A stretch of 64,000 nucleotides of DNA from an uncultured Verrucomicrobiae bacterium. GTDB taxonomy: Bacteria; Verrucomicrobiota; Verrucomicrobiia; Chthoniobacterales; UBA10450. Below are positions 714-64,000 of the stretch, piece by piece. A program made the position numbers and the translations under genes. The notes under the pieces are model-generated. The model had not been told where the DNA came from and did not search any database. It saw only the letters and a program-made list of their open reading frames with translations. Position 1 is the first letter of the stretch. Each line of letters starts with the position of its first letter. The stretch is taken from the NCBI GenBank assembly GCA_963726745.1, contig CAVSDR010000003.1:992001-1056000 (forward strand), written 5' to 3'.

Positions 714-1838
714 TTAGCCGAAGCGATGCACTTCCGCGGCGAGCGCAGCCATCGCGTCGTCACTCAGGTTCAAGGGCGGCATCAGCCGCAAAACCTCCGG
801 GTCGCTGCTGCCACCGACGAGGATGCAGTTCTCTTGCAGGTGTGCCTTCAGCTCCTTTGCCGCCCCCGGGACTTCGAGGCCGAGGAGCAAGCCGCTCCCG
901 CGCACCGCCTGCACGCAGGAACCGTCGAGCATTTGCCGGAGCTTCCGCTCGCAGGTGAGCGCGCGCTCCATCAATTGCTCCTGCTCGATCACCTCGAGCG
1001 TGGCCAGCAGGGCCGCGCAAGCCAGCGGTGAGCCGCCGAAAGTGCTGCCTAAATCGCCCTGCTTAAGCTGCGCCGCGATTGCTTCCGTCATCAGCAATGC
1101 GCCGATCGGCACACCGGAGGCGAGGCCTTTCGCGCTCGTGATCATGTCCGGCAGCACACCATGTTTGGTCGCTGCATACGGGAAACCCAGGCGGCCCACG
1201 CCGGTCTGGATCTCATCGAAGATCAAGAGCGTGCCGGCTGCACTCGTTAGGCGGCGGAGCTTCTCCAGGAAGCTGGTCGTCGCCGGTCGAATCCCGGACA
1301 TGCTCTGGATCGGCTCGAGCAGAACCGCGGCGACGGTGGCGAAATCGAAGGCGTCGAGCGCAGCTTCGTCGTTCCAGGGCAACTGCGTGCAAGGCGCAAG
1401 CAACGGCGCGTAAGGCGCGGAGATTTTCGGGTCGTCGGTCAGCGAAAGCGGGAGGGTGCCGCGGCCATGCCAGCCGCCGGCGAAGGCGGCGAAGCGATGG
1501 CGCCCGGTGATTTTGACGGCCACCTTGAGCGCGTTCTCGTTCGCTTCGCTGCCGCTATTGCAAAAAAAGACGCTCGCCATGCCGGCGAACCTAACGAGTG
1601 CTTCCGCGGCTTGATTCCGCACCGGCACTTCCGCGGCGGTGCTGTAGAATAAAAGCTCGTGCGCCTGCGCGCTGATCGCGTCGGCTATTTTCGGGTGCGC
1701 GTGCCCGGTGCTGCAGACGCAATGGCCGCCGTAAAAGTCGAAGTAGCGGCGGCCTTCCGCATCGAAAACGCAATCGCCTTTCCCGCGCACGAGCGGAAAC
1801 GGGTAGGGCGGGTAGGTCGGTAGGAGCGCGGCGCTCAA
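714..1838 (-). CDS. argD: acetylornithine aminotransferase (class III PLP enzyme)
   Basis: FCNSGSEANE, LIFDEIQTGVGR, SAKGLASGVP, GSTFGGSP motifs; start overlaps the carB stop. Confidence 0.9.
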   Translation of the reverse strand: MSAALLPTYPPYPFPLVRGKGDCVFDAEGRRYFDFYGGHCVCSTGHAHPKIADAISAQAHELLFYSTAAEVPVRNQAAEALVRFAGMASVFFCNSGSEANENALKVAVKITGRHRFAAFAGGWHGRGTLPLSLTDDPKISAPYAPLLAPCTQLPWNDEAALDAFDFATVAAVLLEPIQSMSGIRPATTSFLEKLRRLTSAAGTLLIFDEIQTGVGRLGFPYAATKHGVLPDMITSAKGLASGVPIGALLMTEAIAAQLKQGDLGSTFGGSPLACAALLATLEVIEQEQLMERALTCERKLRQMLDGSCVQAVRGSGLLLGLEVPGAAKELKAHLQENCILVGGSSDPEVLRLMPPLNLSDDAMAALAAEVHRFG

Positions 1839-4800
1839 GGATGATATTCCTGGAGGCTCTTCACGGTGATGCCGTGACTTTGCAGGGCGCGAATCCCGAC
1901 CACGCTGGCCTGGGCGGCGCGCATCGTGGTGATGATCGGGATCTTCGCGGTGCGCGCGCGGCTGCGCATGGTCAGCTCGTCTTCGCGCGGAATTTTGCCG
2001 CTCGGGGTGTTGATGATCAGCTGGACGTCGCCGTTCATGATCCGATCGAGCACGTGCGGCCGACCTTCGCGCAGCTTGAAAACGCGCGTCACCGGCAGGC
2101 CGGCTTCGCTCAAGGTATCGGCGGTGCCGCTGGTCGCGATGATCCCGAAGCCTAACGAGAGGTAATCCCGCGCCAGCGGGACGACGCGCTGCTTGTCGGT
2201 GTCTTTCACGCTGATGAAAACGTTGCCTGTTTTCGGGAGCGGCGGCGGCGCGGCCATCTGCGACTTCGCGTAGGCGCGGCCGAGGTCGACGTCGATGCCC
2301 ATGACTTCGCCGGTGGATTTCATCTCCGGGCCGAGGGCGGTGTCGCTCCCGAGATAACGCAGGAACGGGAAGACCGGCTCCTTGACCGAGAAATGTTTCG
2401 GCAAAATCTCTGCGGTAAAACCGAGCGTGCTCAGCTTTTCGCCGGCCATGACTTTGGCCGCGAGCTTGGCCAGCGGAACGCCGATCGCCTTGCTCACGAA
2501 CGGGACCGTGCGCGAGGCGCGCGGGTTGACCTCGAGCACGTAGAGGTCGTCGCCTTTGACGGCGAACTGCACGTTCATCAGGCCGCGCACTTCGAGCTCA
2601 CGCGCCATCGCTTTCGTCGCGGTGGAGATTTCAGCCAGCACTTTGTCGGGGAGCGAAAACGTCGGGATGGCGCAGGCGCTGTCGCCGCTGTGAATGCCGG
2701 CGAGCTGGACGTGTTCCATGATCGCGCCGATGACCGCGGTCTCGCCGTCGGCAATGCAATCCACATCCACCTCGACCGCGTCCTCGAGGAAGCGGTCGAC
2801 CAGAATAGGCCGGTCGGGGCTGACCTCGATCGCCGTCTGCATGTAGCGCGCGAGATCGGTGTCGTTGTAGACCAGCTCCATCGCCCGTCCGCCAAGGACA
2901 AACGATGGCCTAACGAGCACTGGATAGCCGACACGCTGCGGCGATCGCAAGCGCTTCCTCCGCGCTGACTGCGGTGCCGCTGGGCGTTTGCCGCAGGCCG
3001 AGCTTGTCGAGCATGGCGGCGAAAAGCTTGCGGTCTTCCGCTTTCTCGATGCTCTCGGGTTGCGTGCCGAGAATGGGGACGCCGGCCGCGCGCAGGCCGG
3101 CGGCGAGGTTGAGCGGAGTTTGTCCGCCGAACTGCACGATCACGCCCTCGGGTTGTTCCTGGTCGTAAATGTTGAGCACGTCTTCGAGCGTGAGCGGCTC
3201 GAAGTAGAGTTTGTCGCTGGTGTCGTAATCGGTCGAAACGGTCTCGGGATTCGAGTTCACCATGATCGTCTCGAAGCCGAGCTCGCGGAGCGCGAAGGCG
3301 GCGTGCACGCAGCAGTAATCGAACTCGATGCCCTGGCCGACGCGATTCGGGCCGCCGCCGAGGATCATAATCTTCCGGCGATCGCTCCGACGCATCTCGT
3401 TCTCGGTCCCGTAGGTCGAGTAGTAGTAGGGAGTAAAAGCTTCGAATTCCGCCGCGCAGGTGTCGACCAGGCGGTAAGTCGGGATCACGCCTAACGACTT
3501 ACGAAGGTCGCGGATCGCGGACTCCGATGGAATTCCAGGCGACCGCGAGCTGGCGATCGGAGAAGCCGAGCTTCTTCGCGCGGCGGAGGGTGTGGAGGTC
3601 AGGCTTCCAGCCTGACTCGGCGAGCAGGCTTCCAGCCTGCTCATCTCCTAACTGCAAAACGGCCGCATCACGTAGAACAAACGAACCGGACGCCAATCCG
3701 GCCAGATCGGGATTCCGCCGGATATATTCCCGCGAAGCCGCCAGATGCGCTGCGTCGTGGACAATCGTGTCGAAGCTCTCAGCCATCCAAACCGGTCCGG
3801 CATGCTGCAAGTCGCGGTTGAGTGCATTGGCAGTGAAGGATTTCCAGGAATGCAGTATCTCGCCGAGGGTCCGTCCCTCGTTAGGCCGGACGAGAACATG
3901 CACGTGGTTAGGCATGACCACGAAGGCGTCGAGCGCGTAGCGTTCGCCGTCGAAATGCTCGAGCGCTTCCGCGACAACCTTGGCGGCAGCCGGTTGCGCG
4001 AGCAGGCAGCTGCCATGGCCGCGGTCGAGCCATTCCTCGCGGTTTTCTTCGCAGAGGCGGAGGTATGAGCGGGCGGTTTGCCAATCCCATGGCTGAGGGT
4101 GCGCAGCCACGAATCGCTCGGTTTCCTCGCGCCACTGCTCGAGGACTTCTGCCGGGACAGAGTCGGCCAGGCGGAAAGTGACGAAGTAGGTCGCGCCGGG
4201 TTGTTCCCAGTGGGGGAGATGGCGGCGGGTTTGGTGGATTGCGGCTTGTGGGTCCAGGCCCTGGAAGATTGGTGGCTCTTTGCGACGGGCTGGAAGCCCG
4301 TCGGCCGAGTCAGCCTGGAAGCCTGACTTCCGGGCTTGTGGCAGGTCCGCGGCAGCTTCCACGATTTGGCGGATGTTGTGCAGGAACCACGGGTCGATTT
4401 TCGTCAGCTGGTGGATTTCTTCGGTCGTTAGGCCGTCCTGGAAGGCTTGGGCGACGTAGAAAATGCGCTCGGCGTTCGGGACGGCGAGCTTCAGGCGGAG
4501 CGCCTCGGGGTCGACGCGTTTTTCGGCGCCGTCGGCGCAGAGGCCAAAACGTTTGATCTCAAGCGAGCGCAATGCTTTTTGTAGCGCTTCCTTGAAGGTG
4601 CGGCCGATGGCCATGGCTTCGCCGACGCTTTTCATTTGCGTGGTGAGCGTCGCGTCTGCTTGCGGAAATTTTTCGAAGGTGAAGCGCGGGATTTTGACCA
4701 CGCAATAATCGATCGTCGGCTCGAAGCTCGCCGGCGTCTCGCGGGTGATGTCGTTGCGGATTTCGTCGAGGGTGTAGCCGACCGCGAGCTTGGCCGCGAT

Positions 4801-5766
4801 CTTAGCAATCGGGAAACCGGTGGCCTTGGAAGCGAGCGCGCTCGAGCGGGAAACGCGCGGATTCATCTCGATGACGCACATCCGGCCGTTCTGCGGATTG
4901 ACAGCAAATTGAATGTTCGAGCCGCCGGTCTCGACGCCGATCTCGCGGATGACCGCGAAGGAAGCGTCGCGCATGAGCTGGTACTCGCGGTCGCTTAAAG
5001 TCTGCGTGGGCGCGACGGTGATGGAGTCGCCGGTGTGCACGCCCATCGGATCGACGTTCTCGATCGCGCAAATGACCACGCAGTTGTCCGCGCAGTCGCG
5101 CATCACCTCCATCTCAAATTCCTTCCAGCCGACAAGCGATTCCTCGATCAGGACCTCGCTCACGGGGGAAAGCTCGAGGCCGAGGCCGGCGATCTGGTCG
5201 AGTTCCTCGCGGTTGTAGGCAATGCCGCCGCCGCGTCCGCCGAGGGTGAAGGCCGGGCGGATGATGAGCGGGAAGGTGCCGATGTTGTCGGCAATTGTCG
5301 AGAGCTCGCCTAACGAGTGCGCGACTCCGGAGCGCGGGACGTCGAGTCCGATGCGGAGCATGGCTTCCTTGAAGAGCTGGCGATCTTCGCCCTTGGCGAT
5401 GGCCTGGGCATTCGCGCCGATGAGCTTCACGCCGTGGCGCGCGAGCGCGCCGTTGCGATTCAATTCCATCGCGGCATTGAGCGCGGTCTGGCCACCCATC
5501 GTCGGGAGGATCGCGTCCGGCTTCTCGCGTTCCATGATCGCCTCGATCACCTCGGGAGTGATTGGCTCGATGTAGGTCCGGTCGGCAAATTCCGGATCGG
5601 TCATGATCGTGGCCGGGTTCGAATTAACCAGCACCACCTGGTAGCCCTCCTCGCGCAACGCCTTGCAGGCTTGCACCCCGGAATAATCGAACTCGCACCC
5701 TTGGCCAATGACGATCGGGCCGGAACCGATAAGGAGGATTTTCTTGAGCTCGTTGTTGCGCGGCAT
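1835..5766 (-). CDS. carB: carbamoyl-phosphate synthase large subunit, with in-frame transposase/REP insertion and two apparent single-base frameshifts (~3525, ~2937)
   Basis: [76 protein letters not shown] and a C-terminal MGS domain, spread over ORFs 3499-5844, 2910-3644 and 1835-2950. Confidence 0.95.
3594..3642 (+). repeat. REP-like double hairpin (left end of element)
   Basis: GGAG-GTCAGGCT-tcc-AGCCTGAC-tcggc-GAGCAGGCT-tcc-AGCCTGCTC: two perfect stems with 3-nt loops. Confidence 0.9.
4283..4331 (-). repeat. REP-like double hairpin (right end, inverted copy)
   Basis: Reverse complement GGAAGTCAGGCT-tcc-AGGCTGAC-tcggc-CGACGGGCT-tcc-AGCCCGTCG aligns without gaps to 3594-3642. Confidence 0.9.
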
Positions 5767-7106: not shown

Positions 7107-8411
7107 TCAGAGTTGCGGGCGCAAGGGGAGCGCGAGCCGCCCACGCCACTTGTCCTTCCACGGGCGTTGCCGCCAATCCGCGAGCGTGACTTCGCGTGAG
7201 TGGCTTTTGTCCTCCTCGAAAACACGCGTGTGCCGGCGCACGAAGTCGCGGCCCAGGACGTTGAGATTCGCCTCTTCGTTCAGCGAGAGGGAGCGGTTGT
7301 CGAGATTGGCCGAGCCGACCGAAGCCCAGACGTCGTCGACCAGGAGATACTTGCAGTGGAAGCGCGCCGGCAGGTATTCGAAGAAACGCGCGCCCGCCTC
7401 GAGCAACGGACCCCAGAGCGTCTGCCCGACGGCGCGCACGGTCTTCGCGTCAATGTCCGGGCCGGGGGTAATGATCTCGACCTTCACGCCGCGCTCGAGC
7501 GCCTGCAGCAACGTGTCGAGGCAAAGCTGATCGGGAATAAAGTAGGCGTTGGCGATCCGGATGGTGTGCCGCGCGGAGGCGATCGAGACCAGCAACATCA
7601 GGCGCGCGCTCGCGGAGCCTTCGCCGGCGGAACTCTTGAAGACCTGGCAACGGTCGTCGCCCGCCACCTCGAGCGCGGGAAAATAGTCGTCGCCATGGAG
7701 AAGCTCGGCGCGCGTCTGCAGCCAGTTATCCATGAAGGCCTGCTGCATCTGGCCGACCGCGGGACCTTCGAGTTCGTAATGCGAATCGCGCCAAAGATGT
7801 TTCGTGCGGCCGTCGCCCCGCCAATCGTCCGCGATCCCGGTGCCGCCGATGTAGCCATGCCGGCCATCGACGATCAGGAGCTTGCGGTGCGTGCGGAAAT
7901 TCATCGTTAGGCCGATGAAGCGAAAGACCTCGAGCTGCACCGGCGAAGCGCGGATGCGGTTCATCGCGCGCGCGTGCAGCCCATCGCAGCCGAGCGCGTC
8001 CTGCAGGAAATGCACCTTCACCCCGGCCTCGGCCCGCTCCACCAAAGCGTCGGCAAACGCCTCCGCGATTTCGCCTTCCCGCCAGAGGAAATTCTCGAAG
8101 CAAACCGTGCGCTCAGCGCTGCGGATGGCGGCCAGCATGGCCGGGAAAATTTGGTCGCCATTTTCCAGCGGGAGCACGCGGTTCCCGTCGAGCAACGGCG
8201 GCCCGAGCATCTGCCCCATGGTCCGGGCAAAGACTTCGTCGCCCGCGTCGTAATCCGCCTCGATCCGGTGGCCGACCTTCTTCTCGTTAGGGAAAAAATT
8301 CCGCGCGATCAGGAGCGAGGCCAGGCCGCCGGCCGCGGCCGCCGCCAGGAGCCGGGGCCATTGCGCTTCGTCGCCGGGAGCATCGTGCCACTTCACTCTC
8401 TCTATTCGCAT
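7107..8411 (-). CDS. phospholipase D family, cardiolipin synthase ClsB-like
   Basis: Two HKD motifs (RTHRKLLIVD, FHCKYLLVD), GSANLDNRS. Confidence 0.85.
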   Translation of the reverse strand: MRIERVKWHDAPGDEAQWPRLLAAAAAGGLASLLIARNFFPNEKKVGHRIEADYDAGDEVFARTMGQMLGPPLLDGNRVLPLENGDQIFPAMLAAIRSAERTVCFENFLWREGEIAEAFADALVERAEAGVKVHFLQDALGCDGLHARAMNRIRASPVQLEVFRFIGLTMNFRTHRKLLIVDGRHGYIGGTGIADDWRGDGRTKHLWRDSHYELEGPAVGQMQQAFMDNWLQTRAELLHGDDYFPALEVAGDDRCQVFKSSAGEGSASARLMLLVSIASARHTIRIANAYFIPDQLCLDTLLQALERGVKVEIITPGPDIDAKTVRAVGQTLWGPLLEAGARFFEYLPARFHCKYLLVDDVWASVGSANLDNRSLSLNEEANLNVLGRDFVRRHTRVFEEDKSHSREVTLADWRQRPWKDKWRGRLALPLRPQL

Positions 8412-8450
8412 CTCTCGGGCGCGACGCGCCCTTCCCCGTGATCTCGCTGC

Positions 8451-9290
8451 CTAACGAACGGGCGGCGGCGTCGGCTGCTGGTTCGCCTTTGCCGGTGGCG
8501 TGCGTCCCGGCGGCCGCTGGCCGCGCCCGGGCGGATTGCGTCCCGTGCCGCCGCCGCTGCCGCCGCCGAGATTGATCGAGGGCAAGCCGAGCCCGCCGAG
8601 GCCGGAGAGGATGGGGCCAACGCCGCCACCGGAGACCTGCGTCCCTTGGTAGACCGGCTCGTTGTGCGCCGCCTCCGCGATCAGGTCGCGGCTGGGCAAC
8701 GGCGCGAATCCCACGATCAACGGATGCGTCTGCATGAGCTGGTCGAGGTCGATCTTGACCGGCTGCCCGAGCGTGGTCGCGCCCGCGGGCACCTCGAGCA
8801 TCTGGCCACCGCGCAGGTCGCGCGTTTGCGCCGGGACCTTGCGGAGGGAAAGACGCGCGTTGCCCTCGAGGACAATCAGCCGGCTGCGTCCGCCGCGGCT
8901 GCTTTCGAGGATCAAGGTGGTTCCCGTAACGGCGACGCTCACGGCGTTCCCGCGCACGCTCGCGCCGCCGGTGTTTTTCGGCACGCGCAAGAGGATGGAA
9001 CCGCTCTCCAGCTCCACGCTGCGGCCGCCGCGGGAATGGGTGTAGATCGTGTTCTCGCCCAGGCGGGTGAGCGTGAGATCGCGGAAGGTGAGCTCGGATT
9101 TCGAGCGCTCGCCGGTGCGGACCGCAGTCGTCTCGTCCACGACCGCATCGAGTTTCGCCGGCTGGGGCTTGCTCTCGTTAGGCAGCAAGTTCACTTCGCG
9201 GACGATGCGGGTGACGCGGGCCTCCTTCCCGGCGGCCAGGAGGACCGTCGGCAGCGCGAGAAAAAGGAGAAGGCAGGCGCGGCCGCTCAC
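8451..9290 (-). CDS. secreted FecR-domain protein with Gly/Pro-rich tail
   Basis: Signal-like N-terminus; VRTGERSKSELTF..TRLGENT...AVTGT pattern; GTG start inferred. Confidence 0.7.
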   Translation of the reverse strand: MSGRACLLLFLALPTVLLAAGKEARVTRIVREVNLLPNESKPQPAKLDAVVDETTAVRTGERSKSELTFRDLTLTRLGENTIYTHSRGGRSVELESGSILLRVPKNTGGASVRGNAVSVAVTGTTLILESSRGGRSRLIVLEGNARLSLRKVPAQTRDLRGGQMLEVPAGATTLGQPVKIDLDQLMQTHPLIVGFAPLPSRDLIAEAAHNEPVYQGTQVSGGGVGPILSGLGGLGLPSINLGGGSGGGTGRNPPGRGQRPPGRTPPAKANQQPTPPPVR

Positions 9291-9372: not shown

Positions 9373-9813
9373 ATGAACGCGCATTTTTGGCAGACCAACC
9401 AAACCCTCTTCGATCTCGCCTTGCTCCTCTTCCGGCTCGCCCTTGGGATTTGTTTCGTGGTCCACGGCCTGGGCAAACTCGGGGTGGTCGGGCCCGGGAG
9501 TATGAGCGGCTTCACCGGCTGGCTGCAGTCGCTCGGCTTCCCCATGCCGGCGCTGCAGGCACGGGTCGCGATGCTCTCGGAGTTAATCGGCGGTGCCTTT
9601 ATCGCGGCCGGTTTCCTGACCAGGTTGTCGGCTATTTTCGTTTGCGTGGCGATGGCGGTAGCGGCGGCCGTGGGGCACAAGGGCGGCGGCTATTTGATCA
9701 CCAATACGCCGCCCGGGAACGAGTATGCGCTCAATCTCGCGCTGCTCATGATCGTGCTTCTGCTCCTGGGGCCCGGGAGCCTCTCGCTCGATGCGCTCCT
9801 TTTCACTCGTTAG
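9373..9813 (+). CDS. DoxX family membrane protein
   Basis: LLLFRLALG..FVVHGLGK, ELIGG..GFLTR, EYAL, GPGSLSLD. Confidence 0.88.
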   Translation: MNAHFWQTNQTLFDLALLLFRLALGICFVVHGLGKLGVVGPGSMSGFTGWLQSLGFPMPALQARVAMLSELIGGAFIAAGFLTRLSAIFVCVAMAVAAAVGHKGGGYLITNTPPGNEYALNLALLMIVLLLLGPGSLSLDALLFTR

Positions 9814-9862
9814 GCGGCGCGGGTTTGCGTTCGCCGGTCGCCTTGCGTAGCAGTCCCTCGCT

Positions 9863-10607: not shown

Positions 10608-13106
10608 TTACTCGGCCCGGAGGGCAGCGATGGGGTTCACGCGCGTGGCCCGGAGCGCGGGCACGAGGATGGCCGCCGCCGCGACCGCGGTGAGCAAGGC
10701 CGCGACCGAGCTGTAGATCACCGGGTCGAGGGTGTTCACCCGGAAAAGGAAATTCTGCATCGCCGCGCGGCCGATCACGCCGAGGAGCACCGCGGCCGCG
10801 CCCACGCCTAACGAGAGCCCGATGACGAGCTGCCAGGCGCCCTGTCGCATGACCAGCCGGAGGATCCGAGCCGCGTCCGCGCCCAGCGCCATGCGGATGC
10901 CAAACTCCTGTGTGCGCTGATTGACCGAGAAACTCATGACGCCATACAAGCCGACGGCAGAGAGCAAAACTGCGACCACGCCGAAAGCGGTGAAGAGCGT
11001 CGCGGTGATGCGATTGACGCCGAGAATTTCATCGTGCAAACGCGCCGGCGTGCCGCCGAAGTAGGTCGGCAAATTGGAATCGAGCTGGCTCACCGCCTGG
11101 GCCAGCGGCGTGGCCAAAGTCTCGGCACGCTGGCCGCGATGCGGGCGCACCATGAGGGTGGCAAATTGCGAAACCTGCTCGGTGCCGAGCAGCGGCATGT
11201 AGAAGCCGGCGCTGTCCGTCTGCTGGTTAAACGGCCCTTGCATGAGCATATCCGGAACGACCCCAACGATCGTGCGCCAGGGCTGCGGCGCGGCCGGATT
11301 GAAGACGCGAATGCGCCGTCCGAGCGGGCTGGCGTTGCCCCAATATTTTCGCGCGAAGGTGGCATTGACGATCGCCACCGGCTGGCTGGCGTCGCTGTCG
11401 GCCACGGTGAAATCGCGGCCTTCCAGAAGCTTCAAACCCACGGTCTCGAAGTAACCATCGGAGACGGACTCGAAATTGCCGCGCGGGCGGTCGCGTTCGG
11501 TCACGTAACTTTCGCCATCGACTTCGTATTGCGCGAAAGGGGCGAAGGTCATGCGGAAGCGATCCGTCATGGCCGCGGCTTCGAAGTTCGGATTGCCGCG
11601 GAGTTCGCGCAGAGCGCGCACGAAGAACTGCTGGCGCGCCTGGGCCGTGGGATAATCGCCTTCAAACAAGCCCATGCGCGCGGTGTAAAAGCTCGCTTCG
11701 TCGTAGCCGTAGTTCAGGTGGATCTGGTTGCGGACGGATTTGATCTGCAAGGTCGCGGCGATGAGGAGCGCGGCGGTGAGCGCGATCTGCGCGATCACCA
11801 GCGTGCGCGTGAGGACATTCACCAGCCGGCTGCTGTTGCCGCGGCCGCCTTCTTTCATGACCTCGGCCGGGCTGGCCCGGACCGCGAGGAGCGCGGGCAC
11901 CAGGCCGGAAACCACCGAAGCCACGAGCGTGATCGCGATCGTGAATAGCAGCACCGGTCCGTCGATGGTAAACGAAACCCAATAAGGCAATGGGAAGGGC
12001 AAGGCGTTCGTGGTGCGCACGAGCAAGCTCACGGCCCAATGCGCCAGGAGCACGCCCACCGCCGCGCCGAGCAGGGCCACGAGCAGGCTTTCGGTGAGCA
12101 TTTGCCGCACGATCCGCGCGCGCGTGGCCCCGAGCGCTCCGCGAATAGCCAGCTCTTTGGCACGCAGAGCGACGCGGCCAAACTGCATATTCATCACGTT
12201 CACGCATGCGATCAGGAGCACGACGATGACCGCGCCGAGCATCGCATAAACGGTCTGGCGAAGCTGCGGGCCGGTGAAGCTGTTAAGCAACGGCTGCACT
12301 TTCGCGGAGACGAGCTGGCCATTGGTCTTCGGATATTCCCGCGCCAGGCGGCGCGCGAGCTCGACAAATTCCAGGTTCACCTGGTCAAGGCTCACGCCGG
12401 GCTTGAGCCGGCCGATGATCGCCGGGCCGTTGTTTTGCGCGGTCGGATCCTCGCGCGGCTTTGCCGGGAACTCATTGAAGAGCGGCACCCAGAGCTGCTC
12501 CGCCACCGGGAAAGCAAAGCCTTTCGGCATCACGCCGACGACGGTGGCAGCCTTGCCATTAATCCGGATGGCCTGGCCGACGATCTGCGGATCGGCATTG
12601 AAATCTCGCTGCCAAATCTCGTGTCCCAGGATCGCGACCTTCTCTGCGCCCGGCTGGTTATCCGCCGCGGTAAAGTCGCGGCCGAGCACCGGCGAGACGC
12701 CGAGGATGCGGAAGAAATCCTCGGTGACGTAACCGCCGGTGTAGCGCGTGGGATTGTTCTTATAGGTGACGTTGACGGTCGAGCCATTGAGGTAGGCGAC
12801 CATCATGGAGAAAGATCGCTGCGCCTCGCGCAGGTCGAGGTAATCCTGCGCCGTGGGGATATTGCCGGCGCCGTTGTTGTTTTGATTGTCGGTCGCCTGC
12901 GGGTCGAGCAAGCCCACGCCCACGAGCTGCTCGGCCTGGGGAAAGGAGAAGCCGCGAAGCACGAAGGCGTTGACCACGGTGAACTGCGTGGTCACACCAC
13001 AGATGCCGAGCGCGAGCACGGTCACGGCGAGGAAACAGAAGGTCTTCTCTTTCGTGAGCACGCGCAGGCCGACGCGGAGATCCTGGAAGAAGGATTCGAA
13101 AAACAT
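10608..13106 (-). CDS. duplicated MacB/FtsX-type ABC transporter permease (ADOP-like)
   Basis: QDLRVGLRVL, LLIACVNVMN, RGALGATR, QRTQEFGIRMALGA, PIAALRAE. Confidence 0.9.
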   Translation of the reverse strand: MFFESFFQDLRVGLRVLTKEKTFCFLAVTVLALGICGVTTQFTVVNAFVLRGFSFPQAEQLVGVGLLDPQATDNQNNNGAGNIPTAQDYLDLREAQRSFSMMVAYLNGSTVNVTYKNNPTRYTGGYVTEDFFRILGVSPVLGRDFTAADNQPGAEKVAILGHEIWQRDFNADPQIVGQAIRINGKAATVVGVMPKGFAFPVAEQLWVPLFNEFPAKPREDPTAQNNGPAIIGRLKPGVSLDQVNLEFVELARRLAREYPKTNGQLVSAKVQPLLNSFTGPQLRQTVYAMLGAVIVVLLIACVNVMNMQFGRVALRAKELAIRGALGATRARIVRQMLTESLLVALLGAAVGVLLAHWAVSLLVRTTNALPFPLPYWVSFTIDGPVLLFTIAITLVASVVSGLVPALLAVRASPAEVMKEGGRGNSSRLVNVLTRTLVIAQIALTAALLIAATLQIKSVRNQIHLNYGYDEASFYTARMGLFEGDYPTAQARQQFFVRALRELRGNPNFEAAAMTDRFRMTFAPFAQYEVDGESYVTERDRPRGNFESVSDGYFETVGLKLLEGRDFTVADSDASQPVAIVNATFARKYWGNASPLGRRIRVFNPAAPQPWRTIVGVVPDMLMQGPFNQQTDSAGFYMPLLGTEQVSQFATLMVRPHRGQRAETLATPLAQAVSQLDSNLPTYFGGTPARLHDEILGVNRITATLFTAFGVVAVLLSAVGLYGVMSFSVNQRTQEFGIRMALGADAARILRLVMRQGAWQLVIGLSLGVGAAAVLLGVIGRAAMQNFLFRVNTLDPVIYSSVAALLTAVAAAAILVPALRATRVNPIAALRAE

Positions 13107-19605: not shown

Positions 19606-19617
19606 GCGCGCCCTCGC

Positions 19618-19863
19618 CTAACGAATCCCCGGCGTCGGCCCGCTCTGCCAGCGCGCGTAGGTGTCGTTGTAAAATTGAAACTGCCGGCCGCCCAGCCGGC
19701 GCACGGTGCTCCAGCCGTTGCGCGTGGCAAAGTCCTGCAGCTCGGCCGCGGTCAGTTGTTGCAGGATCAGGAGCTCGCTCGGGTGCGTGATGAAACACTC
19801 CGGCCGCCCGGCGAGGGCGCTGGCTATTTTTGTTTCGATCGCGGATAGCTCGTCAGAGATCAT
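19618..19863 (-). CDS. small hypothetical protein
   Basis: ATG 19863 preceded by GAGGAGG; 81 aa MISDELSAIE...FQFYND. Confidence 0.55.
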   Translation of the reverse strand: MISDELSAIETKIASALAGRPECFITHPSELLILQQLTAAELQDFATRNGWSTVRRLGGRQFQFYNDTYARWQSGPTPGIR

Positions 19864-25056: not shown

Positions 25057-25073
25057 CAGTCGTTAGGCGCGGA

Positions 25074-32854: not shown

Positions 32855-32863
32855 GGGCGGCGC

Positions 32864-37962: not shown

Positions 37963-37965
37963 TGT

Positions 37966-40971: not shown

Positions 40972-40974
40972 CGC

Positions 40975-42820: not shown

Positions 42821-42919
42821 TGCGCTGCGGGGGGCAATTTTAATCCCGAATGAGCCGATGCAAACCCGGAGATTTTTTGCAAGCGCCGCGCCGTCGATCA
42901 GCCGCGGAAAGCGCGGAGA

Positions 42920-43600: not shown

Positions 43601-43604
43601 GCGA

Positions 43605-46608: not shown

Positions 46609-47295
46609 CTACCGCTCCAGCGCCACCCGAAAGAGCGTGGCGATGATGCGGGTGCCGGCGAGCAAGGTGCCGCGCAGGCTCCCGGAGACTTTGGATTCGC
46701 CGCCGGTGCGGCAGCGGTGGTTCACCGGGATCTCGCGGATGCGCAGGCCGGCGCGAGCAGCGCGCATCTGCATCTCGAGGTTCCAGCCGTAGGTTTCCTC
46801 CTTCATCCCGAGGCGCGCGAGGGCGTCGCGCCGGATCGCGCGAAAGGGACACATGTCGGTGTATTGCACGCCGTAGAGCGGGCGAATGAGAATGCCGGCT
46901 AAATATCCGGCAAAGACCTGCTGCGCGTTCATGCTCCCGGGTTCGCGCTCCCCGCGAGTGCGCGAGCCGATGACGAAGTCGGCCAGGTTGTCGGCAATCG
47001 GCCGGACGAGCGTTTCCATGAACTCCGGGCAATCGCTCCCGTCGCCATCGAGGAAGACGACGATCTCGCAGTCCTCCGCAACCGCGGCCACGCCGGCAGC
47101 GCAGGCGCGGCCGTAACCGCGCGGCGCCTTCACCACCTGCGCGCCTGCCGCCTGCGCGCGCTCGGCGGTGCGATCGGTGCTGCCGTTGTCGACCACGATG
47201 ATCTCGTTAGGCAAACCAGTCGCGCGGCAGGCCCGCACGACCTCGGCGATCGGCTCCTCTTCGTTGAGCGCGGGAATGACAACCGACACTTTCAT
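46609..47295 (-). CDS. glycosyltransferase family 2
   Basis: VVIPALNEE, VVDNGSTD, FLDGDG, YTDMCPFRAI. Confidence 0.9.
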   Translation of the reverse strand: MKVSVVIPALNEEEPIAEVVRACRATGLPNEIIVVDNGSTDRTAERAQAAGAQVVKAPRGYGRACAAGVAAVAEDCEIVVFLDGDGSDCPEFMETLVRPIADNLADFVIGSRTRGEREPGSMNAQQVFAGYLAGILIRPLYGVQYTDMCPFRAIRRDALARLGMKEETYGWNLEMQMRAARAGLRIREIPVNHRCRTGGESKVSGSLRGTLLAGTRIIATLFRVALER

Positions 47296-49432: not shown

Positions 49433-49530
49433 GTGATCGCACACTGGTCGCTGATCGCACCGGTTTCGCAACGCCGCGCGCACGGAGAGCGCCGCGCAGA
49501 TTCCGCGGCCGCGGCAGAGGCGACCTCTCG

Positions 49531-50283
49531 TTAGGCTCCGAGGCGGGCGGAGAGTTGCGCGAGGCAGTCGCGGGTCGCGGGCGCTTCGAAGCCGGCGTGC
49601 TCCGGATCCGCCAAAGTGCTGGCTAATTTCTCCAGCGTGGCGCGATCGTCCACGTCGAACCAGGTCGGGAGCATGTGGACATCGAGCCCCAACTCGGCCG
49701 CGCGTTCGAGCGTCTGCGTGGCCACACGCTCCGTGCTCCAGTCGATCCGCTCGAAGAGCGCCGCGTGCGCCTGTTTCATCCCAATGAGGTAATAGCCGCC
49801 ATCCTCCGAGGGACCGAAGACGATGCGGTCGCCGGGTTGCGCGAGCGCCGCGGCGGCGTCGCGGTAGGCTTCGACTGGGACCGTCGGGCTGTCGGAATCG
49901 ATCAGGCAAACCGACTCGAAGCCGATCTCGAAAAGATCCGCGGTCGCAAGCGTGAGCCGTTCGCCGAAAGCGTCGCCGCGCTGCGCGATGAGCTCGAACT
50001 CCGGCGGAAAGATATCGGCGTAGACGGCCTCTTCACCGACCGGGGTGTAGACGGCAATGCCGCGGGCGAAGGCCTGGCCGCAAGCGGCCTGGATGGCCGC
50101 GCCGGTGTCGCGCAGGAAGCAGGCATTGAGCGCGGCGGCTTCTGCCGGGGTGAGCGGCGGGCTGAGGCGCGTCTTCACTTTTCCGGGACGCGGCGCCTTC
50201 GTCATGACCGCGAGGGCGCAAAGCCCGGGCGGCACTTGTTTGCCTAACGAGCGATCGAAAACGCGGTGGCCCGGCGCGCTCAC
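49531..50283 (-). CDS. TIGR04282/DUF2064 family glycosyltransferase-like protein
   Basis: KAPRPGKVKTRL, QRGDAFGER, DSDSP, GPSEDGGYYLIG, WFDVD. Confidence 0.85.
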   Translation of the reverse strand: MSAPGHRVFDRSLGKQVPPGLCALAVMTKAPRPGKVKTRLSPPLTPAEAAALNACFLRDTGAAIQAACGQAFARGIAVYTPVGEEAVYADIFPPEFELIAQRGDAFGERLTLATADLFEIGFESVCLIDSDSPTVPVEAYRDAAAALAQPGDRIVFGPSEDGGYYLIGMKQAHAALFERIDWSTERVATQTLERAAELGLDVHMLPTWFDVDDRATLEKLASTLADPEHAGFEAPATRDCLAQLSARLGA

Positions 50284-52920: not shown

Positions 52921-52946
52921 AGTCGTCGCCTAACGAGCGGTGTGGC

Positions 52947-55464
52947 TCACGGCACGGTGTAAAATTCCACCTGGCCAACGCCGCTGCTGCGATCGCGGCC
53001 CCGCACGATGGCGGTGTAATTGCCTTTCGTCAGCGTCGCGAGCAGGGCGGACTCGCGCGAGTTTTCCGGCGCCAGACCGGTAGCGGTGATCTCCGCCGCC
53101 TGGGTCGCGTTCCAATCGTCGTTCGTGGCCAGGATCGCGCCGTTGTGATCAAAGAGGAGCAGCTCCGGATTAGCCAGCGCGCCCTCGACCCCACGCGCGG
53201 TGAGCGAAGGACCCAGCCCGCGCACGAGCACCCGCACGCTGCCGGCGCCATCGGTGCCGCTCCCGTTGCCCACGATCAAGCCGCCAATGAGGACGTTCTC
53301 ATCCACCCCGACGAGGCCGCGGCTGCTGACGTTGGCCAGTTGCGAAACACTCCCGGGCGCGAGGTCGTAGACTTCGACCAAGGCTACGCCGGTGGAGTGG
53401 TCGCGCCCGCGGACGATGGCGGTGTAGGCGCCGGGGCTGAGCGTCTGCACGATGGCAGATTCGCGGTCGTCTTCCGGTGGCAGGCCGGTGGACTCGATGG
53501 CGGCAGCGTCGGCCTCGCGCCAGTCGTCATTCGTTAGGCTGGGGCCGTTTTGCGGGACGAGCTGGAGGGTGGGATCGGCCAGGGCGCCGGCGATCCCGTG
53601 CCGCGCGAGCGAGGGACCAAGGGCGCGCAGCAGGACGCGTTTCGGCTCGCTCCCGGTGATGATGAAGCCGCCGATGAGAGCATTGGCATCGCCCATGCCG
53701 ACACGCGCACGGGTGGAAAGGTTGAGTTGCCGGCCGGTGCGGAAGACGGAGGCGGGATCGTTTGGATCGGTGCTCGGCGAGGAACTCCGCGCCGTTGTCT
53801 TCGCCATCGCCATCGGCGTCGCCCGCAGGGCCGCCAGTGAGGTTGCTGTCTATTTGGCCTAACGAGAGGCGGGCGGCCTGCCAGCTGAGAAAGCTCAATG
53901 CCGGCGCCAGGCCCACGCGGGTGACGAAGGGATCGGGATCGCCCGTGCGCGTATCCACCCAGACCGGCACCGCCGGGACGTCCGGCGTGGTGCTTTCCGC
54001 AAGGCCGAGATAATCGCCGAGCATGTAGCCGCTGCTCGTGCGCGGGGCGAGCGCAGCCTCGGTGGAGACGGAAGTGAGGCGAAGATTCGGCTGCCAGGTG
54101 GCGCCGCCGTCGAAGGACTGCGCGAGGTAGAGATCGACCAGCGTGGCAGAGCCGGGATTGTCGCGATGATCGTAAAAGGCGACCGTGATCCGCTGGCCGT
54201 CGGGCGACGCCGCGATCGCGGGATTAAACACGCCGGAGCCGGCGGGATTATCGCTGATCGCAACCGGCGCGCGCCAGGTCGAGCCGCTGTCGGAGGATTT
54301 CGTGAAGAGAATGCGCGGCGCCCCGCCGAGGCGTCCCTGGCACGCGACATAGAGATTGCCGACGTGATCCGCCGTGGCCGATGGGAGGAAACCGCCGCTG
54401 CGGATCTGGCTCTCGGAATAGAGGGCCACGTTGGCGATTTTGCGCGAAGCGCCAAAGCTCGTGCCGCCGTCATTCGAAACCGCGACCGCGAGAAAGTCGT
54501 CCGCGGAGGAGGCAGTGCGATTAAAGTTCCAGTAGACGAGCGCGAGTTTGCCATCCGCGAGGAAGACCGGCTGCGCGCCCTGCGTGTCCTGATTGGCGGA
54601 ATCGATCAGCGCGATCGGGCTCCAGGTCAGTCCGCCGTCATCGCTGAAGGAGCGGACGATCGGGCCGCCGTTGGTGTTTGTGGGGCCGAAGAGGGTGAAG
54701 GCCACGAGGATGCGGCCGGCGGTAGCGGTGCCGGGGAAAGGATTTAGCGCCATCCAATTTTTGTCCGGGAAAATCGTGTCGTTAGGCGATTGGTAGACCA
54801 CGACGGGCGCGGCGAAGGTTTGCCCGCCATCGGTCGAACGGCTCACGAGCACTGCGCTGGTGGTGAACTGTGGATTGAGCGCGGCGATGGTATTGAGATA
54901 GGCCGCACCGTCGAGTCCAACGCCGGCCACGGGATCGCTCGCCCGCGGATACGGGCCGCCGCTTGCACTCGTTAGGCCAGGGATGAGCGCGCGCGTCCAG
55001 GTCAGGCCGCCGTCGCGGCTCACCCCGTAGCCGCAGTCGACCGCGCCGCCGTCGGTGAAACGGCCTTCCTGGAAAGTGGCGAGGAGAAAGTCGGGATCGC
55101 CCGGGGAGCGGGCGACATGCGGCTCGGCCTGCGCGCGCAAATTAGACGGCAAGCTGGCGGGATCATCGCCCAGGCGAATGCCGGCGCGCACCCGGCGATC
55201 GAGCGCAGTTTCGACGGCGGCGCTCTGCGCCGGGACGCGGCGAGTGTCGCGGGGCGCGGGGCTTTCAACGAGATCGCCTCCGCGATCGAGCCGGAGCAAG
55301 GCGCCGGAAGAAAGATGCTCGAGCGGGACCTGCTGGAGGGCACGCGGCAGCCGCGCACGATCTGGGGCCGGCCAACCCGGCGGCGGGGGCGTTTCTGCCC
55401 TAACGAGTGGTGCGAGCAGCGCCAGAGTGACGACGAGACCAGAGAGCGCGCGCGGCAGTTTCAT
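52947..55464 (-). CDS. secreted BNR/Asp-box (sialidase-like) protein with C-terminal tandem NLSTR domain (frameshift ~53775)
   Basis: Repeated S.DGG.TW/F boxes, DKNW, GDY; then NLSTRARVG..LIGGFII..RALGPSL and NVSSRGLVG..RGLGPSL. Confidence 0.8.
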
Positions 55465-60256: not shown

Positions 60257-60282
60257 CTCGTTAGGCGAGTTGGCCTAACGAG
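60257..60282. terminator. hairpin built from two inverted copies of the over-represented motif, between convergent gpsA and purN
   Basis: CTCGTTAGGC-gagttg-GCCTAACGAG: perfect 10-bp stem. Confidence 0.7.
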
Positions 60283-61334: not shown

Positions 61335-62227
61335 GACTGGGGCGGCGGCACGAAGACCCGAAGCGCTCGCGGCATGATTTCGAAGACCGCCGGCTCGTTC
61401 CCCACAAGTTCGCCATCGACGTTGAACCACATGCCCGGCTGCGAATGGATCGCCACTCGCGCGGCACGGCGGAAGATCACGTTCTCGCTTTCCAGATGCG
61501 TGCCGAGGCCGATCGCCGCGATCACCAGCGCGATTGCGGTGGCCTGGTTTTCGGGAATCAAAACCACGTCCAACAAGCCGTCGTCTATTTTTGCTTCGGG
61601 CGCGATCTCCGTGCCGCCGGCAACGAAGCGGCCATTGGCGACGACCACGTTATAGAGATCGAAAATCTCCGGCGTGCCGCCATCGAGCGAGACCTCGGTG
61701 CGGTAGGCGCGCAGGTCCGGAAGCGCTTCCGCGGCGCAACGCAGATAGGCCAGCGGCCCCCAAGTCTGCTTGATTTCCGGGGTCATGATTTCGTTGACCG
61801 CGCCGCTGAAACCGCCCGCGGAGACGTTGATGAAATAGCGCACGGCGTCGCTGCGCACGCGCACCAGGTCGACCGGGCGCGTGTGGCCGGCGGCAATCAC
61901 TGCGAGGCATTCATCCACCGTGGCCGGCAGTCCCAAAGTGCGCGCAAAATCGTTCCCGGTCCCGAGCGGGAGCAGGCCTAACGAGACTTCGCCCGCGTGT
62001 TCCGCGAGGCCGTTGACCACCTCGTTCAGGGTGCCGTCGCCGCCGGCCGCCAGCACTTGCTCGCACCCGCGCTCCACCGCCGCGCGGGCCAGGCGCGTGG
62101 CGTCGCCTTCCTTCCCGGTGAAGTGCACCTCCGCCGCCGGCAGGTGTTGCAGCTTCGCGCGCAATCCCGCCTCGTCATCGACACTGCCGGCCCCGGGATT
62201 GCAGATGACGAACGTCTTTAACCTCAT
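61331..62227 (-). CDS. diacylglycerol/lipid kinase family (YegS-like)
   Basis: NPGAG, GGDGTLNEV, PLGTGNDFA, DDGLLD, NVDGE. Confidence 0.9.
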   Translation of the reverse strand: MRLKTFVICNPGAGSVDDEAGLRAKLQHLPAAEVHFTGKEGDATRLARAAVERGCEQVLAAGGDGTLNEVVNGLAEHAGEVSLGLLPLGTGNDFARTLGLPATVDECLAVIAAGHTRPVDLVRVRSDAVRYFINVSAGGFSGAVNEIMTPEIKQTWGPLAYLRCAAEALPDLRAYRTEVSLDGGTPEIFDLYNVVVANGRFVAGGTEIAPEAKIDDGLLDVVLIPENQATAIALVIAAIGLGTHLESENVIFRRAARVAIHSQPGMWFNVDGELVGNEPAVFEIMPRALRVFVPPPQS

Positions 62228-62352: not shown

Positions 62353-63171
62353 ATGGACTTCGAACTCAACCCCACTCCTCAGCGCGCTCGTCGCCAGCCC
62401 CGCGCGGCTGCAGCCGAGGCCGCCTTCGAGATTTCGTCCCGCCCGCTGATCGGCGAGGCACCCGCCGCCGCGGTCGCACCCGCGCCTTCGGCCGCCGCGA
62501 TTCCGCCCACGCTCTGCCTGATGGCGCGCGATCCGCATACGCTCTTTGCCTATTGGGAGATCGACTGGACGGATGCGTTTCGCGACGGCAAGCCGGCCGA
62601 CCGCAAGGTGCATCTGCGTTTGCTCAACTCCGCCGACAAGGAGCAGACCGTGGAGGTGGAGCCGATGGCCGGAAGCGCCTACCTCCCAGTAGACGGTGCC
62701 GACGAAGAATACCGCGGCGAGATCGGTTTTTTCCGGCCGGCCGGGAAATGGAATGCGCTGGCTGTTTCCGCGAACATCGCCACGCCGCCCGACAGCCTGG
62801 TTGATTTCGACGAGACGGAATGGGCCACGGTGCCATTCCACCTCAGCTTCCAGCGCATGATCGACATGCTCCGGACCGCGCGCGCGCCGCTCACCGTGCA
62901 GCTCGCCGAGTTGCGCGAACGCTCCGCAGCCCCGGAAACGGAAGCCATGCTGAGCGCCCCGGAGCGCGAACTAAACCGCGCCGTGCGCGCGGTCGAAAGC
63001 CGTCCGCCCGCCGCTCCGGGCGCGGCCCGGCCTAACGAGTTGTCGAAAAAGCAAAAGCAGAAACGCCTCGAGCGCATCCTCGGCTTCGGTGGCGCCGGGT
63101 TGAGCCCGGCCGAAGGCTTCGGCGGCGCGAGCGAGAACGGTCTTGGCGGCAGCAGCCGCGGCGGGTCCTAG
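62353..63171 (+). CDS. DUF4912-domain protein
   Basis: LMARDPHTLFAYWEI ... Y..EIG ... SANIATP. Confidence 0.75.
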   Translation: MDFELNPTPQRARRQPRAAAAEAAFEISSRPLIGEAPAAAVAPAPSAAAIPPTLCLMARDPHTLFAYWEIDWTDAFRDGKPADRKVHLRLLNSADKEQTVEVEPMAGSAYLPVDGADEEYRGEIGFFRPAGKWNALAVSANIATPPDSLVDFDETEWATVPFHLSFQRMIDMLRTARAPLTVQLAELRERSAAPETEAMLSAPERELNRAVRAVESRPPAAPGAARPNELSKKQKQKRLERILGFGGAGLSPAEGFGGASENGLGGSSRGGS

Positions 63172-63878
63172 CCGCCGCCCAGATAGGCCTGCTTGACCTG
63201 CGCGTTCGCCCGCAGCGCGCTCGACTGGTCGGCTAAAATAATCCGCCCGGTCTCGAGCACGTAGCCAAAGTGCGACACTTCCAGGGCGAGGTTGGCGTTC
63301 TGTTCCACCAGGAGAATGGTGATGCCTAACGACTTGTTGATCTCGCTGATCTTTTGGAAGATCGACTTCACCAGGAGCGGGGCGATCCCGAGCGATGGCT
63401 CGTCCAGCATCAGGCAGCGCGGCTTGCTCATCAGCGCGCGACCGATCGCGAGCATCTGCTGTTCGCCGCCAGACAAAGTGCCGGCAACCTGCTTCGCCCG
63501 CTCCTTCAGCCGCGGGAACATCCCGAAGACGAGGTCGAACTCGCTGCCTAACTTCCCGCGATCCTTTCGCAGGTAAGCGCCCATCAGGAGATTTTCGTGC
63601 ACCGTCAGGTTGGCGAAAATCATCCGCCCTTCCGGCACGTGCGAAAGCCCGCGGGCCACGATCCGGTGCGGCGCCTCGTTCGCGATCTCCACCCCTTCGT
63701 AGCGGATCGAGCCGCTCCGCGCTTTCAGCAATCCGGAGATCGCGCGCAAGGTGGTCGACTTCCCGGCGCCGTTCGCCCCGATCAAGGTTACGATCGAGCC
63801 CTGCTCGACCTTGAGCGAGATCTCGTGCAGCGCATTGATCGAGCCGTAGGCGACCGCGAGGTTGGTAAGTTCCAGCAT
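63168..63878 (-). CDS. livF: branched-chain amino acid ABC transporter ATPase
   Basis: GANGAGKST, VPEGR, LSGGEQQM, DEPSLG, VEQN. Confidence 0.92.
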   Translation of the reverse strand: MLELTNLAVAYGSINALHEISLKVEQGSIVTLIGANGAGKSTTLRAISGLLKARSGSIRYEGVEIANEAPHRIVARGLSHVPEGRMIFANLTVHENLLMGAYLRKDRGKLGSEFDLVFGMFPRLKERAKQVAGTLSGGEQQMLAIGRALMSKPRCLMLDEPSLGIAPLLVKSIFQKISEINKSLGITILLVEQNANLALEVSHFGYVLETGRIILADQSSALRANAQVKQAYLGGG

Positions 63879-63884
63879 GACTCG

Positions 63885-64000
63885 TTAGGCAGAAGCGGAT
63901 GCTGCTGGCGGTTCTTCGCCGAGGTAGGCTTCAATCACTTTCGGGTTGGACTGCACTTCCGCGGGCGTGCCCTCGGCGATTTTCTCGCCGTAGTCGAGCA
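63885..64000 (-). CDS. livG: branched-chain amino acid ABC transporter ATPase, C-terminal fragment
   Basis: [27 protein letters not shown], upstream of livF. Confidence 0.85.

Follow-up and report, generated by a model that had tools for sequence, protein, structure and literature searches.

The question raised by the stretch of DNA analyzed here is why a single short, asymmetric word should be so abundant and so exact throughout the chromosome of an uncultured member of the Chthoniobacterales. The stretch, referred to below as the window, is a 64-kb segment (G000:C3:992001-1056000) of the assembly G000, which comprises 3.41 Mb in 7 contigs with a guanine plus cytosine (GC) content of 63.7% and is 94.7% complete. 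The word is the nine-base sequence GCCTAACGA. The results presented below indicate that it is real, very strong, family-wide and active at the level of DNA, and that it appears most like a DNA uptake signal. An exact-match search of the window recovered 40 exact copies, 19 on the forward and 21 on the reverse strand, at exactly the starts that a preliminary description had listed from a hand count. Dinucleotide-preserving shuffles of the window (n = 100) gave a mean of 0.26 copies and a maximum of 3, in agreement with the earlier estimate of less than one copy per window. Its seven-base core, CTAACGA, has 45 copies in the window, where 2.79 are expected. In the whole genome, 1312 copies (681 forward and 631 reverse) were found in 3,406,779 bases, compared with the 16-20 expected from Markov models of order 1 to 3, and the enrichment extends outside the window to 7 of 7 contigs, with densities of 0.32-0.53 per kb and an overall value of one copy per 2.6 kb. 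By count, GCCTAACGA ranks second among the 9-mers of the genome, and GCCTAACGAG, with 820 copies, is the top 10-mer.

It can be observed that CTAACGA, located at word positions 3-9, is nearly invariant across copies, while the flanks are almost information-free: G is found at +9 in 62% of cases, T at +10 in 43%, and A or T (W) at +13; the fuller form of the word is GCCTAACGAGT. Variants at word positions 1 and 2 are enriched, as is GCCTAACAA, with 121 copies.

The word acts at the level of DNA and represents neither a favoured peptide or codon usage nor a repeat element. Genes were called by our own crude codon-score method, which yielded ~3000 genes and 81-89% coding sequence per contig, with exact stops and approximate starts. 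All four open frames are used by the word, besides stops and spacers: S-L-G (TCG TTA GGC) by 450 copies, L-T (xGC CTA ACG A) by 226, P-N-E/D (CCT AAC GAx) by 214 and V-R (GTT AGG) by 75, while 173 copies overlap a stop codon (GCC TAA or CGT TAG) and only 174 are intergenic by these calls. Most copies therefore lie inside genes, as had been claimed, and the three frames named at that time are correct; the V-R frame and the stop-overlapping copies had been missed. Copies on the gene strand and on the opposite strand are approximately equal in number, which speaks against a role at the RNA level. When synonymous codons were shuffled within genes (n = 10; proteins and codon usage kept), 231-243 of the 1312 copies were left, including the 174 untouched intergenic ones, so that ~60 coding copies remained compared with 1138 observed; the enrichment thus survives the codon-aware null proposed as a check. 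Moreover, 452 of the 784 S-L-G tripeptides are spelled TCG-TTA-GGC, compared with 4.3 predicted from codon usage, TTA representing 2.8% of the Leu codons in G000, and GCCTAATGA, a silent variant of the word where the frame is S-L-G, was seen 0 times genome-wide against 9 expected. Both S-L-G (784 vs 481, 1.6x) and P-N-E (252 vs 103, 2.4x) exceed the numbers calculated from amino-acid composition, and therefore the word alters proteins.

Regarding its distribution, the word is family-wide within one family of Chthoniobacterales and at background outside it. Judged by CarB, the closest named relatives (86-90% identity) are soil metagenome-assembled genomes (MAGs) labelled Chthoniobacterales, Verrucomicrobia or Verrucomicrobiota, together with one Candidatus Udaeobacter sp. 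The word is present in four independently assembled relative contigs (L002, L003, L004 and L007), the last with 12 copies in 16 kb; these are short-read MAG contigs of other studies. In contrast, 67 loci from other phyla and lineages (1.10 Mb) held 0 copies. In the genus of G000, 24 of 24 genomes showed enrichment (138-2412 copies vs 27-118 for the reversed control word), and no enrichment was seen in 16 of 16 genomes from other families of the order (1-19 copies vs 12-99 for the control). A survey of the family was then based on 150 further genomes, each at least 80% complete; the tallies include the unpublished genomes G001, G008, G045 and G155, on which none of the conclusions rests, since the range of each genus holds in their absence too. 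Density was genus-typical and the identity of the word was conserved in ~25 genera. The number of copies per genome was 1241-4336 in g37 (maximum in G083, 4336 copies, 1.36 per kb), 1808-2628 in g18, 1297-1836 in g30, 354-1803 in g38, 160-2435 in g1, the genus of G000 itself, and 22-198 in g21, down to 60 in G068 of g44 (control 79) and 13 in G059 of g35 (control 29). Genera whose genomes are similar thus differ in density by a factor of more than 100. No published description of the word was found in the literature on Udaeobacter or Verrucomicrobia with uptake sequences or natural competence, and PMC7343977 contains no mention of competence, natural transformation or pili. As far as the literature search reached, the word is novel for the phylum and not in print, which agrees with the earlier remark that no described case was known for this lineage.

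The arrangement of copies along the genome was analyzed in 50-kb bins. Orientation was correlated neither with GC skew (rho -0.05) nor with gene strand (rho 0.04), and within the window the two orientations are interleaved at the kb scale. The earlier statement that there is no strand bias holds on this basis, although GC skew is weak in G000 and replichores were not placed independently. Copies less than 200 nt apart were fewer than expected (32 gaps vs 98), while gaps above 15 kb were more frequent (10 vs 3.7). Regions of 56-60% GC contain 0.10 copies per kb and those above 66% contain 0.59-0.65, a 6-fold increase with local GC, whereas quintiles of codon score, a measure of gene typicality, displayed only a mild trend (0.26-0.39 copies per kb). 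Four annotated gaps, from the five longest (21-35 kb), contain O-antigen/exopolysaccharide and exosortase clusters and giant secreted proteases. The word thus appears under-represented in flexible or recently acquired DNA, the acquired status of these islands being suggested by their content and GC.

The way in which sites arise can be followed in carB, aligned between G000 and 8 relatives. The word copies align gap-free, codon for codon, with the orthologous genes, and 10 word sites were recognized, of which only 2 recur in more than one genome. In outgroups, Arg of the conserved L-V-R-P site is encoded by CGC or CGT; in L004 and L005 the site reads CTC GTC AGG, one base off the word, and the full word is present in G000, L002 and L007. 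Elsewhere the word was created in G000 at the cost of amino-acid changes, such as S-I-A to S-L-G or I-S-I to L-T-T. Sites therefore arise by point substitution, repeatedly and independently, with fast turnover, and such repeated independent substitution implies a persistent directional force. A separate feature of the same gene is an in-frame insert of ~740 nt (window 3590-4330, reverse strand), located between CarB residues ~477 and 517, which encodes a Y1 transposase domain of the IS200 type, as in REP-associated tyrosine transposases (RAYT; REP, repetitive extragenic palindrome), with an HVH motif (NF047646, E = 3e-16; PF01797). REP-like hairpins flank it, GTCAGGCT-GGA-AGCCTGAC and GAGCAGGCT-GGA-AGCCTGCTC at ~3590-3640 with an inverted copy at ~4305-4330. 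An aligned counterpart is present in carB of L002, L003 and L007 and missing from L001, L004, L005, L006 and L009; the insert may represent an in-frame insertion that an essential gene tolerates or has domesticated.

It should be noted that several genes are split in the assembly, namely carB (~2938 and ~3535), lon, an argZ-like gene and priA (17475-17533, 21348-21547, ~26400-26700), which points to 1-nt indel errors typical of long-read assembly. The two breaks in carB are 1-nt frameshifts, after which the wrong frame runs to the word's own TAG; they therefore inflate the class of words at stop codons. For the copy at 2908, the apparent stop is an effect of the frameshift ~25 nt upstream, and the copy at 3489 was scored intergenic by the gene caller owing to the frameshift near 3535. 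The main word contains 96 TAA and 75 TAG stops of G000 genes, and coding potential downstream of such stops was no different from that at gene ends in general (47% vs 44%). As a class, the supply of stop codons by the word was set aside, since the two carB cases are artefacts; the class is real in part and its size is uncertain. By the same crude calls, stop usage in G000 is nearly even (TGA 1047, TAG 1045, TAA 903), at a GC content of ~64% where TGA is usually the dominant stop codon. Among public reads, the sampled words were recovered at 5-7% in just two soil runs, both from one study. Contigs from soil metagenomes are short pieces of relatives, and show 1-nt length differences from the window at 55524, 55769/55772 and 56679. 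The 40 differences examined, out of 180 in these contigs, include changes at 45298 and 45313-45328 and none inside the word at 45303.

Taken together, the best reading of the word is that of a DNA uptake signal resembling the DNA uptake sequence (DUS) of Neisseriaceae and the uptake signal sequence (USS) of Pasteurellaceae, a reading adopted tentatively, at a little short of even chances. According to the accessible parts of the sources, DUS and USS consist of 9-10 bases in hundreds to thousands of copies (bioRxiv 10.1101/2025.10.24.684340; PMC3630211, PMC3868556, PMC7811141) and uptake words have been described for just two proteobacterial families (bioRxiv 10.1101/2025.10.24.684340); the reading of DUS is attributed to the minor pilin ComP (PMC3868556, PMC4906244), and the minor pilin PpdA/ComN is the predicted reader in the other known system (PMC12616744). 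Like USS, the present word possesses a 9-base asymmetric core with weak flank preferences and occurs on both strands in hundreds to thousands of copies, mostly coding, in several frames and at places that proteins tolerate; a point-mutation origin, the existence of dialects and rarity in foreign DNA are likewise in common. Like DUS, as far as the accessible parts of PMC3630211 and PMC3868556 go, it is family-wide and non-palindromic (9-12 bases), with genus dialects and differing densities, and type IV pilus genes with many minor pilins are encoded in G000. Profile searches of this genome, which addressed the earlier suggestion to look for comEA, comEC, dprA and pilus genes, identified, over the respective cut-offs, ComEC (849-aa frame), DprA, 3 secretins and 6 ATPases of the PilT family, besides many pilins. 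Since uptake genes are encoded, uptake bias followed by recombination is possible. Point substitution has spread the word through the GC-rich resident core of a whole family of soil Chthoniobacterales, and it is kept exact by a sequence-specific, orientation-blind process, most likely that of DUS and USS. In this view, a DNA receptor of the type IV pilus/ComEC machinery would prefer fragments that bear the word. Uptake and recombination into other cells would then favour alleles that gain or keep it, a form of molecular drive. It would accumulate wherever proteins tolerate it and stay rare in recently acquired islands. We infer biased DNA uptake of this kind, with a pilin as reader and spread by recombination. 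If so, this would be a Verrucomicrobiota equivalent of the proteobacterial systems, self-DNA tagging would be a recurrent solution, and natural transformation would be frequent in a very abundant and least tractable soil lineage.

Several observations weigh against an uptake signal. About half of DUS and USS are located in predicted terminators (bioRxiv 10.1101/2025.10.24.684340, accessible part), whereas the present word is 13% intergenic by crude gene calls and forms 8 pairs within 60 nt genome-wide, of which just 2 are inverted, one being a 10-bp hairpin between convergent genes (60258-60281); terminator-type inverted repeats are thus nearly absent, in a comparison that rests on inverted pairs and the intergenic share, not on genome-wide terminator prediction. 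Spacing is uneven overall, with a coefficient of variation of 1.14. Single-mismatch variants within the core are at or below chance, and one-mismatch copies are not enriched in the manner of USS; decayed copies of the uptake word are common in Haemophilus. The word is unrelated to USS in sequence and phylum and lacks its AT-rich, helically phased flanks. Regarding the machinery, ComEA is represented in G000 only by a 29-bit helix-hairpin-helix (HHH) match in an open reading frame (ORF; L095 1474-1761) that looks frameshifted, and a search with ComP_DUS (PF16732) gave at best two matches of 21.9 and 19.1 bits against a cut-off of 27.3, so that, unlike in the DUS system, no such protein is found over cut-off. 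Furthermore, 143 of 151 family genomes retain ComEC whatever their word density, among them the word-free G059 and 16 of 16 genomes of the word-poor g21, and therefore competence genes do not track the word.

Other words in the family also weigh on this side. A second motif in G000, GYYGGCTAAWT (fuller form SAWNKYGYYGGCTAAWTT), is longer and looser than the main word, with which it has GSCTAA in common. It occurs in 539 copies genome-wide vs 12 for the control, on both strands, in several frames and ~80% genic; the window alone has 15 where 0.14 would be expected. Enrichment of this motif is limited to 6 of 24 other genomes of the genus (G011 238, G015 113, G017 60, G009 45, G018 41 and G002 36 copies). 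Samples of 254-400 kb from four other family genomes were searched for further words. In G068 (g44, 362 kb) an unrelated word, AAGATCGACA, is present in 95 copies on both strands, at 0.26 per kb and 39-fold over expectation. The dialect NCTAACGAGAA characterizes G091 (g21, 400 kb), where strand counts for CTAACGAGA are 10 to 37 and copies of the CTAACGAGAA type display extra downstream conservation. No hyper-abundant word was found in the 400-kb sample of G059 (g35). In the word-poor G002 (g1, 254 kb) the main word is present at 0.04 per kb, and the best other word is CGGACGGCAA, with 29 copies. It was set aside as a dialect, since strand counts of 25 to 4 may indicate an element of a different kind, polar or carried by a repeat. 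A single conserved receptor does not predict a second word in G000 or an unrelated word in a sister genus, and DUS differ in exactly this respect, having dialects that differ by 1-3 bases compared with two words in G000 and a wholly unrelated one in the sister genus. The second word, the unrelated word and the word-free genus are new. The sub-threshold ComP_DUS score, the two inverted pairs, the retention of ComEC in word-poor genera and the second word do not fit a simple DUS/USS picture, and the original wording, an uptake or other genome-wide marking sequence, is therefore a fair description, in which uptake is the inferred part.

These additional words would be accommodated by a switchable code for self-DNA in these dominant soil bacteria, which we regard as possible though doubtful. 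An ancient CTAACGAG would be present in most genera, with new words in sub-lineages (GYYGGCTAAWT in part of g1 and AAGATCGACA in the sister genus) and one genus that has lost the code. The readers would be fast-evolving DNA-binding proteins, such as hypervariable minor pilins, and gene flow among co-occurring soil populations would be blocked or channelled by their different words. If a switchable code exists, uptake-sequence biology would have originated independently a third time, outside Proteobacteria, and this would be the first case of two codes in one genome.

Candidate readers and discriminators were examined individually. The sub-threshold ComP_DUS matches were rejected as receptor, as they cover the generic pilin N-terminus. 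Competence genes were discarded as a discriminator: ComEC is present regardless of word density and says nothing either way, and genes of the ComEC, DprA and pilus type are common in bacteria. The window contains a minor-pilin operon (37966-42820, reverse strand) that encodes three proteins of 228, 141 and 249 aa, each with a class-III signal peptide, and then a PilX-like ORF of 115 aa and a protein of ~800 aa with no known family. The operon is free of the main word, has a low GC of 57.7%, and encodes what is no more than a candidate DNA receptor. Its first pilin is hypervariable, with partial matches of 26-48% identity in 14 of 15 genomes, the best being in the word-free G059; being too variable to yield a usable correlation with the word, this pilin was set aside.

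Of the rival explanations, the most probable, although unlikely, is that an abundant chromosomal protein specific to the lineage binds the copies, each of which is maintained by selection. Such a protein could organize the nucleoid, load repair or segregation factors, or provide a mark of self for a defence nuclease. The orientation-blind occurrence on both strands, the deficit of close neighbours, the concentration in the resident GC-rich core genome and the conserved identity in ~25 genera are all consistent with it. The fast turnover seen in carB, where 2 of 10 sites are common to genomes, argues otherwise, and the >100-fold range of density, with none in G059, is hard to square with an essential role. 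From general population genetics, selection per site among thousands would be very weak, and no candidate protein was identified.

Next in order, and improbable in our view, is a target of methylation or another modification comparable with HIP1 (GCGATCGC) of cyanobacteria, whereby linked short-patch repair or conversion bias would produce an exact word without DNA uptake. HIP1 is likewise a hyper-abundant short word, used in any frame, conserved at high rank and with its function open; it is recognised by two methylases and quasi-periodic (accessible part of PMC13756078). Several unrelated words in one family, two of them in one genome, recall the fast switching of methyltransferase specificity; GATC lies within the g44 word AAGATCGACA, and the depletion of near-variants of the core is what conversion predicts. 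G000 encodes one C5, one N4/N6 and type-I-like N6 methylases. However, HIP1 is a palindrome and a known methylase target, whereas the words described here comprise 9-11 contiguous asymmetric bases. Contiguous asymmetric sites of this size are longer than usual for methylases. Furthermore, Vsr was not found in this 94.7% complete genome. The methylases were compared in 5 genomes picked for high or no word density. The C5 enzyme is sporadic, being not found in the word-rich G071 and having homologues of just 36-37% identity in the word-rich G083 and the word-poor G068. The N4/N6 methyltransferase (PF01555; G000:C3:981317-982012, ~10 kb before the window) is kept in 5 of 5 family genomes at 68-74% identity, including the word-free G059, and looks like a conserved orphan methylase. 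Both were rejected as drivers, as neither tracks the word in these 5 genomes.

A polar guide such as Chi or the FtsK orienting polar sequences (KOPS) is very improbable. The density of Chi in Escherichia coli is in the range of the one copy per 2.6 kb observed here. Summed bins show a weak forward excess, 144 to 104, at the start of contig C3 (650 kb), and the strand bias of the g21 dialect described above, within one 400-kb stretch, is of the kind that a polar guide would give; the nearly equal orientation totals, the interleaving at the kb scale and the lack of correlation with GC skew, itself weak, or with gene strand oppose it, as had been argued at the outset. Scarcely credible, and refuted for practical purposes by flanks, codon null, other assemblies, carB alignment and family survey, are a remnant or target of mobile elements (miniature inverted-repeat transposable elements (MITE) or REP/RAYT), for which the RAYT-like gene and REP-like hairpins in carB with one word copy inside might speak but against which stand flanks without conservation or hairpin, the lack of any longer conserved unit and gap-free alignment to relatives' codons, which indicates substitution and not insertion; an assembly artefact, in spite of the indel errors, given the same word in the short-read contigs above and 150 other family genomes; and a codon or peptide by-product, given that the codon-aware null removes the word.

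Whatever the mechanism, the word represents a sharp marker for binning MAGs and spotting foreign DNA, has reshaped proteins to the extent of ~300 extra S-L-G and ~150 extra P-N-E tripeptides, and is a ready bait for its reader. If it is not an uptake signal, a force that rewrites thousands of codons remains unexplained, which would also be worth knowing. The copies in the window are listed in Table 1, together with the word-free stretch and the second motif.

Table 1. Location of the main word, the word-free stretch and the second motif in the 64-kb window
Setting	Position	Strand	Frame or remark
Acetylornithine transaminase gene (714-1838, -)	1244..1252	-	xGC CTA ACG A, L-T
carB, C-terminal part (gene -)	2150..2158	+	TCG TTA GGC, S-L-G
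carB, conserved L-V-R-P site	2908..2916	+	True frame CTC GTT AGG CCA; common to relatives L002, L007
carB	3489..3497	+	True frame TCG TTA GGC, S-L-G; common to relative L003
RAYT/IS200-like insert within carB	3878..3886	-	CCT AAC GAG
carB, N-terminal part	4425..4433	-	GGC CTA ACG ACC, G-L-T-T; relatives I-S-I or M-S-I
carB, N-terminal part	5308..5316	+	TCG TTA GGC, S-L-G; relatives S-I-A and similar
Cardiolipin synthase gene (7107-8396, -)	7904..7912	-	L-T
Stop codon of FecR-domain gene (8451-9290/9680, -)	8449..8457	+	TAG in word
FecR-domain gene	9175..9183	-	P-N-E/D
Stop codon of HvfX-like gene (9355-9813, +)	9807..9815	-	TAG in word
ADOP permease gene (10608-13106, -)	10806..10814	+	S-L-G
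Spacer upstream of lon (15965-)	15904..15912	+	
End of small ORF (19618-19863, -), just past thiG (18808-19605, +)	19616..19624	+	
PolX gene (22106-23938, -)	22991..22999	+	S-L-G
Gene of unknown kind (23977-25056, +)	24537..24545	+	P-N-E/D
Spacer, convergent genes (25056 / 25074)	25060..25068	-	
priA region; ORF 25612-26733 with PriA N-terminal domains	26389..26397	-	Scored intergenic by gene caller
Response-regulator/metallo-hydrolase gene (27958-29325, -)	28425..28433	-	L-T
Response-regulator/metallo-hydrolase gene (27958-29325, -)	28929..28937	+	V-R, GTT AGG
Histidine-kinase gene (29322-30365, -)	29606..29614	-	L-T
Small-GTPase gene (30423-30932, -), last codons	30430..30438	-	P-N-E/D
Word-free 13.5-kb stretch	30439..43984		GC 57.7% over 37-43 kb; holds minor-pilin operon
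Glycosyltransferase gene pieces (43605-44745, -)	43985..43993	-	First copy past word-free stretch
Pyridine-nucleotide-disulphide oxidoreductase gene (44767-45843, -)	45303..45311	-	L-T
ORF end (45895-46119, -), adjoining/overlapping Fpg-like ORF 45760-46554 (+)	45893..45901	+	
GT2 glycosyltransferase gene (46609-47295, -)	47204..47212	-	P-N-E/D
Stop codon of DUF2064 gene (49531-50283, -)	49528..49536	-	TAA in word
DUF2064 gene	50242..50250	+	S-L-G
Spacer just past polyketide-cyclase-like gene (52189-52920, +)	52928..52936	+	
End of ORF 53145-53537 (+), overlapping end of BNR-repeat gene (53527-55464, -)	53531..53539	-	
BNR-repeat gene	53857..53865	+	S-L-G
BNR-repeat gene	54779..54787	-	P-N-E/D
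BNR-repeat gene	54969..54977	-	L-T
gpsA (59239-60264, +), last codons	60247..60255	-	S-L-G; first of three-copy cluster
Stop codon of gpsA, convergent genes	60258..60266	-	TAG in word; left arm of 10-bp inverted repeat CTCGTTAGGC-6 nt-GCCTAACGAG
Spacer past gpsA	60273..60281	+	Right arm of the same inverted repeat
Diacylglycerol-kinase-like gene (61331-62227, -)	61976..61984	+	S-L-G
DUF4912 gene (62353-63171, +)	63030..63038	+	P-N-E/D
ABC ATPase gene (63168-63878, -)	63324..63332	+	S-L-G
Stop codon of gene running off window end (63885-, -)	63882..63890	-	TAA in word
Second motif, GYYGGCTAAWT (starts)	600, 14854, 21340, 22706, 25814, 26183, 33953, 37105, 44043, 46436, 46894, 48120, 49618, 55518, 57338		

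A further repeat of G000 was encountered during the counting of words. The commonest 12-mers of the genome, with ~145 copies, are phases of the tandem hexamer GCCAAC, and the genome must therefore contain somewhere either one long (GCCAAC)n array or several related ones.

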